A program made the translations under genes and the position numbers. Shown here piece by piece: positions 1 to 850 of a stretch of 37,148 nucleotides of DNA; positions within the stretch are counted from its first letter, which is position 1; each line of letters starts with the position of its first letter. The notes beneath the pieces are model-generated. The model searched no databases and was not told where the DNA came from. It saw only the letters and a program-made list of their open reading frames with translations. Location of the stretch: NCBI GenBank assembly GCA_018830125.1, contig JAHJSY010000001.1, positions 1 to 37,148 of the forward strand, read 5' to 3'. Source of the DNA: Patescibacteria group bacterium. Lineage in GTDB: Bacteria > Patescibacteriota > Minisyncoccia > Minisyncoccales > GWA2-38-27.

Positions 1-3
1 AAA

Positions 4-39
4 CAAAAAGTCCTTTGTGATTAAACAAAGGGCTTTTTG
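4..39 (-). terminator. Intrinsic terminator downstream of tRNA-like RNA 1
   Basis: Inverted repeat caaaaagtcctttg / caaagggctttttg with A/T tracts on both sides, directly after the RNA 3' end. Confidence 0.7.
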
Positions 40-42
40 TTG

Positions 43-115
43 TGGACCCGGCGGGAGTTGCACCCGCTTCGCTGGGTGTCAACACCAGCTTGTTAACTAA
101 ATACAATACGGGCCC
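43..115 (-). ncRNA. tRNA-like RNA 1 (73 nt, tRNA-Ala identity G3-U70/A73, non-canonical loops)
   Basis: Acceptor GGGCCCG/CGGGUCC-A; D stem UUGU/ACAA; GCUGG/CCAGC arm; T arm GCGGG-UGCAACU-CCCGC; TATAAT at 132-137 (minus). Confidence 0.75.
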
Positions 116-140
116 ACGGATCCACGCATTTATTATAAAA

Positions 141-218
141 CAAAAAAGAGCTTCTTAAAAGAAGATCTTTTTTGTGACACCCAGCTTGTAGGCTCGTATT
201 GTACGAACATACTAGTGT
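141..218 (-). ncRNA. Small RNA complementary to the 5' half of tRNA-like RNA 1, ending in a terminator hairpin (141-174)
   Basis: Consensus promoter upstream; 218-188 pairs with 117-82 (24 WC + 3 G-U); terminal hairpin caaaaaagagcttctt/aagaagatcttttttg. Confidence 0.65.
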
Positions 219-224
219 ACTTGA

Positions 225-252
225 ATTATAGCAAACCATACTCCTTTGTCAA
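225..252 (-). promoter_or_regulatory. sigma70 promoter TTGACA-16-TATAAT with extended -10 (TGn)
   Basis: Minus strand reads TTGACA AAGGAGTATGGTTTGC TATAAT. Confidence 0.75.
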
Positions 253-260
253 GAGAAGGA

Positions 261-289
261 TTGACATTGTGTTTGATTTTTGTTAAACT
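261..289 (+). promoter_or_regulatory. str operon promoter TTGACA-17-TAAACT
   Basis: ttgaca 261-266, tg-t-taaact 281-289; divergent from the promoter at 225-252. Confidence 0.7.
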
Positions 290-324
290 TCTTAGTAAGC
301 ATTTTATATGCTAACTTTTTAATT

Positions 325-738
325 ATGTCAACGATACATCAACTAGTAAAACATAAAAGAGTAAGCAAGAAAAAGAAAAGCAAAACACCTGCTTTGACTT
401 TTAGTTTCAATGTTTTAAAGAATAGACCGAAGAGATATAACTCTCCCTTTAAGAGGGGTGTTTGTCTTAGAGTTTTTACTGTTACTCCTAAAAAACCTAA
501 TTCTGCTTTGAGAAAAGTAGCTAGAGTTAGATTAACTAATGGAATGGAAGTATCGGCCTATATTCCTGGCGAAGGGCACAATCTTCAAGAGCATTCAGTT
601 ATTATGTTAAGAGGTGGAAGAGTAAGAGATTTACCAGGAGTAAGATATCATGTTGTTAGAGGAGTTTTAGATACGGGGGGGGTTGAAGGCAGAAAACAAG
701 GTAGAAGCAAATACGGAACTAAAAAAGCTAAGACATAA
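325..738 (+). CDS. rpsL: 30S ribosomal protein S12
   Basis: [40 protein letters not shown]; start moved to ATG 325 (MSTIHQLV). Confidence 0.99.
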
Positions 739-845
739 TGCAAATATACAAATGAAATGCAAATCTACAAAAATGCCAATAATACTAAATAATGCGAATT
801 CGCATTTTCGCATCATTGGCATAAGATTCGTAGATTAGCGTTATA
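735..845. repeat. Hairpin of degenerate ATGCRAAT / ATTCGYAT short repeats (family A)
   Basis: Tandem atgcaaat/atgccaat/atgcgaat units mirrored by attcgcat/attggcat/attcgtag; ends match 10895-11006. Confidence 0.7.
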
Positions 846-850
846 AATAT

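Follow-up and report, generated by a model that had tools for sequence, protein, structure and literature searches.

The tRNA-like module upstream of rpsL

The 37,148-nucleotide (nt) stretch of Patescibacteria DNA analysed here (the window; contig C8 of the source genome G000, which comprises 617,556 bases in 55 contigs) carries a 250-bp module of two small RNA genes on its minus strand, upstream of rpsL. The first gene specifies a small RNA of about 85 nt (134..218), which may be termed an 'anti-tRNA', and the second a tRNA-Ala-like RNA of 73 nt plus C74 (42..115) that is delineated by ARAGORN, by covariation and by a covariance model of its family (R1, see below). Alignments of homologs show conservation and covariation of the two genes with their signals, of the cloverleaf and of the complementarity between the two RNAs. 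That all these features persist in the homologs through compensatory changes is the decisive evidence for what follows. The two genes form a widespread and apparently undescribed RNA-RNA module of Patescibacteria.

The small RNA is preceded by a promoter (225..252) with 12 of 12 matches to the consensus, in which TTGACA (252-247) and TATAAT (230-225) are separated by a 16-nt spacer containing TG; the position of the -10 box places the probable start at 218. Three segments of the transcript are relevant to its pairing, namely a (218-206), b (203-188, inside the small RNA's own hairpin) and c (185-175), and they are followed by a terminator made of a hairpin (174-141) and a U run. A promoter of the form TTGACA-16/17-(TG)nTATAAT is found at -129 to -151 from G1 of the tRNA-like RNA in 24 of 26 homologous loci, and a terminator lies between the two genes in 25 of the 26. 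When the homologs were read by eye, no conserved reading frame was seen in either RNA, and the AUG-led 25-codon frame of the small RNA in the window was not kept. Back to back with the small-RNA promoter, across a gap of 8 bp, lies a promoter-like site for rpsL (TTGACA-17-TAAACT, 261-289, plus strand), and the two promoters may compete or share regulation.

In the tRNA-like RNA, the window copy of which is called a 74-nt "tRNA-Ser(tga)" by ARAGORN, the acceptor stem GGGCCCG/CGGGUCC contains G3-U70 and is followed by A73 and C74, with the CCA not encoded. GCGGG-UGCAACU-CCCGC forms the T arm, GG is missing from the D loop (AUUUAGUUA), and U8, A14 and a G19-C56-type elbow with G55 are present. 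The anticodon loop can be read as GUUGACA closed by a U-C mismatch or, counting G26-C44, as a 9-nt loop (UGUUGACAC) on an anticodon stem of 5 bp (26-30/40-44). A -10-like box, TATAAT (132..137, minus strand), was read directly from the sequence and is not listed by the promoter scan because it has no -35 element, which the scan needs; a TAnAAT-like box occupies the equivalent position across an alignment of whole modules (A2, see below). This box sets the start at G125, and the transcript would begin with a 10-nt leader (GUGGAUCCGU, 116..125). The gene ends at an intrinsic terminator of bidirectional form (3..39: an A run, a hairpin at 31-12 and a U run), and terminator-like sites occur at most 70 nt downstream of the tRNA-like gene in 19 of 26 homologous loci.

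The first 8 nt of the leader are complementary to nt 67-74, the 3' end of the tRNA-like RNA, and could form an alternative fold-back helix. In 23 sequences the first seven leader bases are paired with nt 68-74 in 98.8% of cells, and the leader motif is present in 71 of the 87 loci of a public scan described below. For the unprocessed precursor RNAfold gives -36.9 kcal/mol with the leader helix versus -28.6 kcal/mol with the cloverleaf. We regard the fold-back as a conserved possibility and as a helix that is still unproven.

Much of this architecture had been described in an earlier note on the same DNA: the 73-nt cloverleaf with its G3-U70 pair, A73, acceptor and T arm, the D loop without GG, the non-canonical anticodon loop, the TATAAT box and terminator of the tRNA-like gene, the TTGACA-16-TATAAT promoter with an RNA start at about 218, and the hairpin terminator at 141-174 between the two RNAs. 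All of these were recovered here, by ARAGORN, by the promoter scan or by reading the sequence.

Conservation of the cloverleaf and of the alanine identity elements

The tRNA-like RNAs were aligned in 19 rows, of which 18 are distinct (alignment A1). Cloverleaf pairing is maintained in 97.9% of cells and 13 of 21 pairs have changed on both sides, with covariation in all four stems, against 36-53% pairing in a control in which the 3' partners were slid by 1-3 columns. G3-U70 is found in 18/18 distinct sequences while the adjacent pairs 5-68 and 6-67 vary with compensation; G2-C71 is likewise present in 18/18, G51-C63 in 17/18 and G49-C65 in 16/18, and A73 is invariant in the aligned family members. 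Since G3-U70, A73 and G2-C71 are reported as the established elements of alanine identity (10.1101/2022.11.23.517754), the tRNA-like RNA carries the complete identity set of alanyl-tRNA synthetase (AlaRS). Members with U55 (L002 and L006) carry G18G19, and those with G55 mostly have A or U at position 18, which suggests an 18:55 tertiary pair, though few evolutionary events lie behind it. The fold of positions 1-260 of the minus strand has z = -6.5, and none of 200 shuffled sequences was equally stable.

The loop triplet, in the ARAGORN register, reads UGA, UGG, UAG or UAA in the first set of homologs, and a wider set adds UAC, UGU, CGA and others. Loop hexamers of the public modules are UUGACA (23 cases), UUAGCA (14), UUGGUA (10) and UUACCA (5), plus others. 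A pyrimidine (C or U) occupies position 37, and the loop is closed by a Y31-C39 mismatch. The idea that the loop mimics a stop codon, in keeping with the U-R-R reading of the first 26 loops, was discarded in view of UAC, UGU and CGA in the wider set. The family has the four-arm cloverleaf with compensatory change that typifies elongator tRNAs; the combination of a 7-nt loop with U33, a purine at position 37 and an anticodon conserved among orthologs is not found in it. From these alignments we conclude that the tRNA-like RNA is a paralog, L-shaped and under selection, of the clade's tRNA-Ala and has no fixed anticodon.

Searches with Rfam returned no match at gathering score in the 37-kb window, consistent with the earlier note's expectation that the region is not one known RNA, and 6S RNA, Y RNA/YrlA and the T-box are not among the 20 Rfam matches listed for window positions 1-400 at E-values up to 10. 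The Rfam tRNA model (RF00005) remains below its gathering score and its E-value match is outscored by a match of the same-clan transfer-messenger RNA (tmRNA) model (RF00023). A tmRNA identity was rejected in turn, as this match is confined to the acceptor and T arm, passes over 324 model positions and scores 25.2 bits where the cut-off is 47; the tymovirus tRNA-like element (20.4 bits) and rteR (25.7 bits) were also sub-threshold in the search at E-values up to 10 and were likewise rejected. ARAGORN places the genome's tmRNA on contig C30, a normal long-arm tRNA-Ser(tga) on C38 and a tRNA-Ala(ggc) on C13. When window positions 1-330 were compared with the genome by blastn-short, neither a second copy of this locus nor a match to any tRNA or tmRNA gene appeared; together with the full cloverleaf under selection, this disposes of an att-site or pseudogene reading and agrees with the earlier note, which had set the RNA apart from degenerate att-site copies. 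The 34 tRNAs that ARAGORN lists for the genome include three tRNA-Ile(tat) genes (on C6, C28 and C36) and do not include tRNA-Met, tRNA-Trp, tRNA-Tyr or tRNA-Ala(UGC), which may reflect incomplete assembly of the tRNA genes or odd anticodon calls.

Co-evolution of the small RNA with its tRNA-like neighbor

The complementarity of the small RNA reaches nt -2 to 44 of the tRNA-like RNA in three segments. Positions 218-188 pair with 117-82 through 24 Watson-Crick and 3 G-U pairs, with 2 mismatches and one internal loop, and positions 185-175 are perfectly complementary over 11 nt to 81-71; our hand count agrees with the earlier note in both respects. The order a-b-c of the segments is a circular permutation of the plain antisense order c-a-b. 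Across the whole 617-kb genome the 11-mer target of segment c occurs in the sense orientation only in the tRNA-like RNA. A second perfect 11-mer site is antisense within a coding sequence (G000:C43:17366-17676), the N-terminus of which looks PIN-domain-like by eye only, and it was judged a chance match.

Covariation between the two RNAs was measured in alignment A2, which holds 23 whole modules; of 26 loci, L023 and L028 were excluded for want of an upstream partner and L025 because of a 20-nt insertion. In 99.2% of cells segment c is paired with loop nt 34-38 and the anticodon stem's 3' strand, and 9 of its 11 pairs have changed on both sides (68 cells), as compared to 27-42% pairing in slid controls. 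Three of these doubly changed pairs use loop nucleotides (35-37) that are unpaired within the tRNA-like RNA. Segment b is paired with nt -2 to 14 (window 102-117) in 90.5% of cells, many of them G-U. The paired segments contain 75 G-U cells versus 12 A-C cells, which indicates that the selected molecule is the RNA of this strand and not a DNA palindrome.

Predicted duplex energies were compared between cognate and non-cognate partners. For the whole RNAs they are -39.5 versus -30.2 kcal/mol, for segment a -14.3 versus -6.1 kcal/mol, with the cognate partner ranking first in 13 of 23 modules, and for segment c -20.4 versus -9.3 kcal/mol, where the cognate partner heads the ranking in 18 of 23. 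Across 70 further modules the values for segment c are -21.1 versus -11.2 kcal/mol, the cognate partner being first in 47 and among the top three in 63. Judged by these comparisons, the small RNA is co-evolving with its own tRNA-like neighbor, and each copy has a private pairing address.

A second locus and variant copies

A second tRNA-Ala-like RNA, unrelated in sequence to the first, lies on the plus strand at 31601..31671 (locus 2), with the acceptor stem GGGGGUG/CACCUCC, G3-U70, A73 and a long anticodon arm. Its partner (31699..31800, plus strand) comprises a promoter, TTGACA...TATACT, and a small RNA at about 31727-31800, of which nt 31731-31777 are contiguously antisense to 31595-31636, with a duplex energy of -61.3 kcal/mol. 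The latter interval covers the leader, the acceptor 5' strand, the D region, the anticodon 5' strand and the loop of locus 2. Within the window the cognate pairs of the two loci give -40.3 and -53.9 kcal/mol versus -19.7 and -24.2 kcal/mol for the cross pairs. The Rfam tmRNA model matches the ends only of locus 2, with 29.3 bits versus the cut-off of 47. Homologs of locus 2 occur in two of 60 other genomes, G002 and G003, which are too few for a covariation count; in both, the sequence of the anticodon arm differs and the partner, by eye, remains complementary.

Among the homologs of the first locus, L028 has no upstream partner and instead a downstream one with its own promoter, in plain antisense order and with a duplex energy of -53.7 kcal/mol, an arrangement that is also that of locus 2. 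For L023 no partner was found, and a T-stem mismatch is present. Both exceptions fit the module model. In L025 (535-628, genome G005) an inserted GC-rich hairpin of about 20 nt separates the T arm from the acceptor 3' strand and a C5-A68 mismatch is present, so that this may be a decaying or variant copy.

The earlier note had inferred, from the two unrelated loci, a family of modules in which each tRNA-Ala mimic has its own cognate partner, and had named the comparison of cognate with non-cognate pairs as a check. The second locus is indeed present, the covariation of anticodon arm and loop in homologs and the energies above bear out the private partners, and the family now comprises 27 loci in 18 genomes plus about 70 further distinct loci in public metagenome-assembled genomes.

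In the spacer of locus 2 (window 31408-31553, plus strand) we also noted a third promoter-like site, with TTGACA at about 31408, an 18-codon frame (31497-31553, plus strand) behind a strong GGAG ribosome-binding site, and a weak match to the Rfam family 'freshwater-2' at 31427-31498 (23.1 bits versus 49.9).

Phyletic distribution and genomic context

The 27 homologous loci that were read come from 18 related genomes, with 1-3 copies per genome and two or three copies in seven of them. BLAST found matches in 21 of 61 relatives, a set that includes G000; in 13 of these (again including G000) the match covers the tRNA-like RNA, and the remaining eight match 24-44 nt of terminator-like sequence alone. 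The covariance model R1, built from 19 members, scores the window copy at 96 bits in its own genome, where no ordinary tRNA exceeds 49 bits and locus 2 is unmatched. In a sample of 151 genomes of the order it recovers members at 76-96 bits in 7 genomes, the next matches (53-60 bits) being canonical tRNA-Ala(UGC) genes that share the acceptor stem. In a phylum sample, also of 151 genomes, the module was found in two, G000 and the distant genome G226, in which it is complete; the module is kept across orders and in a distant class. A 25-letter pattern combining the G55-type T arm with the acceptor 3' strand was scanned against a species-representative genome collection and retrieved 93 stretches, 87 of them with a full acceptor stem, and among these matches 70 distinct modules for which 150 nt or more of sequence is present upstream. 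The titles of these records are nearly all Parcubacteria, Paceibacterota, Nealsonbacteria, Staskawiczbacteria, Uhrbacteria and similar, with a few other labels. ARAGORN labels members of the family tRNA-Ser, tRNA-Pro or tRNA-Leu.

The 25-nt pattern also matches 49 viral contigs (IMG/VR, L171-L219, e.g. L176:835-859); every one of these matches belongs to a different conserved element, and they give no evidence of a phage-borne module. That element consists of a promoter-like TTGAC-N-TATAAT, about 40 nt, ...CUGGAC, a G55-type T arm and CAGGUCCACCA with an encoded CCA, and it has no 5' acceptor strand at tRNA distance. It resembles the 3' end of a tmRNA or the 3' half of a tRNA, as in an attP copy, a two-piece tmRNA or a guide-like RNA.

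No protein neighbor of the module is conserved beyond local synteny among the 42 nearest open reading frames, 10 of which were compared with Pfam. Thirty of the 42 lie on the strand opposite to the module, and modules are mostly placed antisense between housekeeping genes, with sites inside the str and atp operons as well as in other places. Examples include the rpsG/fusA interval (three genomes), the atpA/atpG interval, and sites beside genes for HlyD, DprA, RNase Y and reverse transcriptases. In G049 (L006:3-1367) the module is convergent with an RVT_1 gene, the sole such case among the 10 neighbor proteins scanned. In G002 the module occupies the interval between the M50-peptidase gene and rpsL, and by synteny the same holds for G000, the contig of which ends at the module. 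Identical module DNA is found in contigs X1 (1-700), X2 (1-483) and X3 (22-490) from three groundwater studies, one of which is possibly the source of the window, and no joint that skips the module was seen in four DNA sequencing runs. Beyond the module, the rpsL-rpsG spacer (window 739-850) contains repeated 'aatgcaaat'-like words and a palindromic terminator-like site (788-817, minus strand).

Proposed function and alternative explanations

The reading that we put forward, and to which we would give an even chance, is that of an autonomous, RNA-only two-gene module whose small RNA unfolds or sequesters a tRNA mimic recognisable by AlaRS. Gene 1 (218-134, minus strand) would be transcribed from its consensus sigma-70 promoter into the small RNA of about 85 nt, ending at the intrinsic terminator, and gene 2 (125-42, minus strand) from its -10-only promoter into a precursor whose 10-nt leader is able to fold onto the 3' end, the two RNAs being made as separate transcripts. 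The processed mimic would be alanylated by AlaRS. Pairing would probably begin at the single-stranded anticodon loop via segment c, after which segments a and b would invade the anticodon stem, the D stem and the acceptor stem. Once released, the 3' strand would be taken up by the leader, and the tRNA shape would be lost together with the function of the alanine-accepting form, so that the small RNA would act as an antagonist of the mimic.

A more tentative extension of this model is a toxin-antitoxin-like or addiction/defence module with the logic of hok/sok, in which the free mimic is harmful and the abundant small RNA silences it. The free mimic could do harm by inserting alanine where codons call for Ser, Leu, Pro, Val or Thr, or by tying up AlaRS or EF-Tu. 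Charging by AlaRS is reported to be independent of the anticodon, and 36 of 60 tRNA-Ala anticodon variants to have slowed the growth of yeast (10.1101/2022.11.23.517754), which makes harm by the mimic plausible. A more specific version, of similarly doubtful standing, is an RNA-only toxin-antitoxin or abortive defence system, in which depletion of a short-lived antisense RNA would let the stable mimic refold, be processed and alanylated, and poison translation, either through alanine inserted at the codons that its arbitrary loop triplet happens to match or through a block of AlaRS, EF-Tu or ribosomes. The anticodon arm would then be a freely evolving address that ties each copy to its own antitoxin.

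Several points weigh against these proposals. The promoter of the tRNA-like gene consists of a -10 box alone, and the leader helix is conserved yet nearly without covariation, a single pair having changed on both sides. The large duplex energies given above ignore intramolecular structure, and the full three-segment complex would be pseudoknot-like; for the folded RNAs the net gain according to RNAcofold is small (-0.8 to -3.8 kcal/mol), so that energies of this kind do not by themselves establish binding. Because related genomes are not independent, significance is overstated by the shuffle statistics. The pyrimidine at position 37, the 31-39 mismatch, the 9-nt loop and G55 in place of the universal U55 make the mimic a likely poor decoder, which weakens the mistranslation version of toxicity. 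Finally, a housekeeping use of Ala-tRNA is possible, given a FemAB-family gene in the genome.

Such a use would make the mimic a regulated housekeeping tRNA-like RNA, either a non-proteinogenic carrier of alanine or a regulator that titrates AlaRS, serving for instance tRNA-dependent transferases, with the small RNA tuning its level; neither toxicity nor selfishness would then play a part. We consider this unlikely, although the AlaRS identity set is conserved, the FemAB-family gene is present (Acetyltransf_6 matches the same gene) and the D loop without G18G19 recalls the non-proteinogenic tRNA-Gly described for Staphylococcus (PMC4052509). The link to FemAB was dropped, since FemAB is found in 57 of 61 relatives versus 13 of 61 for the module and, being nearly universal, does not track it; in G030, which carries three modules, FemAB is unmatched. 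A search of the window's genome for LPG_synthase_C was negative. The T stem keeps G49-C65 (16/18) and G51-C63 (17/18), not the weak EF-Tu pairs A49-U65 and A51-U63 that PMC4052509 gives for non-proteinogenic species. Moreover, the patchy, multi-copy occurrence, diversified addresses and variable insertion sites of the module would be unusual for such a factor.

It is rather improbable that the roles are reversed, with the small RNA as an effector of other targets and the tRNA-like RNA as its sponge or decoy. Enterobacteria are known to have small-RNA sponges that derive from tRNAs, and the small RNA has the stronger promoter of the two. A sponge, however, needs no invariant G3-U70 and A73, no covarying cloverleaf and no conserved elbow, and the genome contains no other sense site for segments a, b and c at up to one mismatch, save one for segment a and one antisense chance site.

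Less credible again is a single cis-acting unit, in which the upstream RNA is a leader or attenuator and a read-through hairpin blocks folding of the tRNA. Here the minimum free energy fold of the whole 260 nt does pair segment c with 81-71 in cis, and a tRNA-like gene with a -10 box alone would be in keeping with read-through. This is countered by the strong terminator between the genes in 25/26 loci and by the conserved -10 box, which sets the start exactly at the conserved leader G. The partners of locus 2 and L028 also lie downstream of the tRNA-like gene with their own promoter, which implies that pairing there takes place in trans or once synthesis of the tRNA-like RNA is complete.

That the locus has no function, being a decaying tRNA-Ala pseudogene or att remnant beside a chance or DNA-level inverted repeat, is scarcely tenable: the sub-threshold Rfam tRNA score and the position at a contig end would suit it, but the covariation in four stems and in the intermolecular helices, the preponderance of G-U over A-C cells, the conservation across orders and in a distant class, the identity among contigs of three studies, and a complete cloverleaf instead of a 3' fragment all contradict it.

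Implications

Genomes of Patescibacteria (candidate phyla radiation, CPR) are of about 0.6 Mb, yet many retain 1-3 copies of this module with consensus promoters and no protein partner. The literature searched, the scope of which did not extend to subscription journals and supplementary files, contains no description of it. To our knowledge, it would be the first natural example of a tRNA mimic, recognisable by an aminoacyl-tRNA synthetase, with a dedicated antisense RNA that co-evolves with it. Should the mimic be charged, the module would bear on how cells contain mistranslating tRNAs, on RNA-only addiction or defence systems, and on natural strand-displacement RNA switches with programmable addresses. 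The tRNA-Ser, tRNA-Pro and tRNA-Leu calls made by ARAGORN would also distort tRNA inventories of the CPR and inferences about its genetic code.

Comparison with known systems

The closest relative of the mimic is the tRNA-Ala (UGC/GGC) of the same clade, with which it shares the acceptor GGGCCYG/CRGGUCC-A, G3-U70, A73, the cloverleaf, U8, A14 and the G19-C56-type elbow. It differs in having no fixed anticodon, a loop of 9 nt or of 7 nt closed by a mismatch, and a pyrimidine at position 37, as well as in its predominant G55, the absence of G18, the short variable region, the sub-threshold Rfam score and the dedicated small RNA. The tRNA-like domain of tmRNA (RF00023), the sole notable sub-threshold Rfam match, likewise combines alanine identity with a D loop without GG; unlike tmRNA, the mimic has no mRNA-like domain, tag frame or pseudoknots, and its anticodon arm is normal.

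Type I systems such as hok/sok, and the RNA-toxin systems of type VIII, resemble the module in their adjacent small genes, a strong constitutive antisense promoter next to a weaker one, fold-back of the precursor 5' end onto its 3' end, a loop-first mode of pairing (proposed for the module), diversified cognate specificity and a patchy, multi-copy distribution. As in antisense toxin-antitoxin systems made of RNA, the two RNA genes are adjacent, their base pairing is cognate and its specificity differs from copy to copy. In contrast to hok/sok, the module encodes no toxin peptide, the putative toxin being the tRNA mimic itself, and its genes are on the same strand and do not overlap.

The non-proteinogenic tRNA-Gly of Staphylococcus is another extra isoacceptor-like species without G18G19, thought to be diverted from translation (PMC4052509), and the loss of G18G19 is shared by the mimic, whose position 18 is A or U in the majority of the family. 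The glycine species differs in that it keeps its glycine anticodon, has weak EF-Tu pairs in the T stem, and is not known to have an antisense partner. The engineered or natural mistranslating tRNA-Ala anticodon variants, lastly, have otherwise canonical loops, whereas the loop of the mimic is non-canonical and decoding by it is putative; the two nevertheless share the combination of G3-U70 with a non-alanine triplet, by which those variants are reported to misincorporate alanine and often to slow growth (10.1101/2022.11.23.517754).

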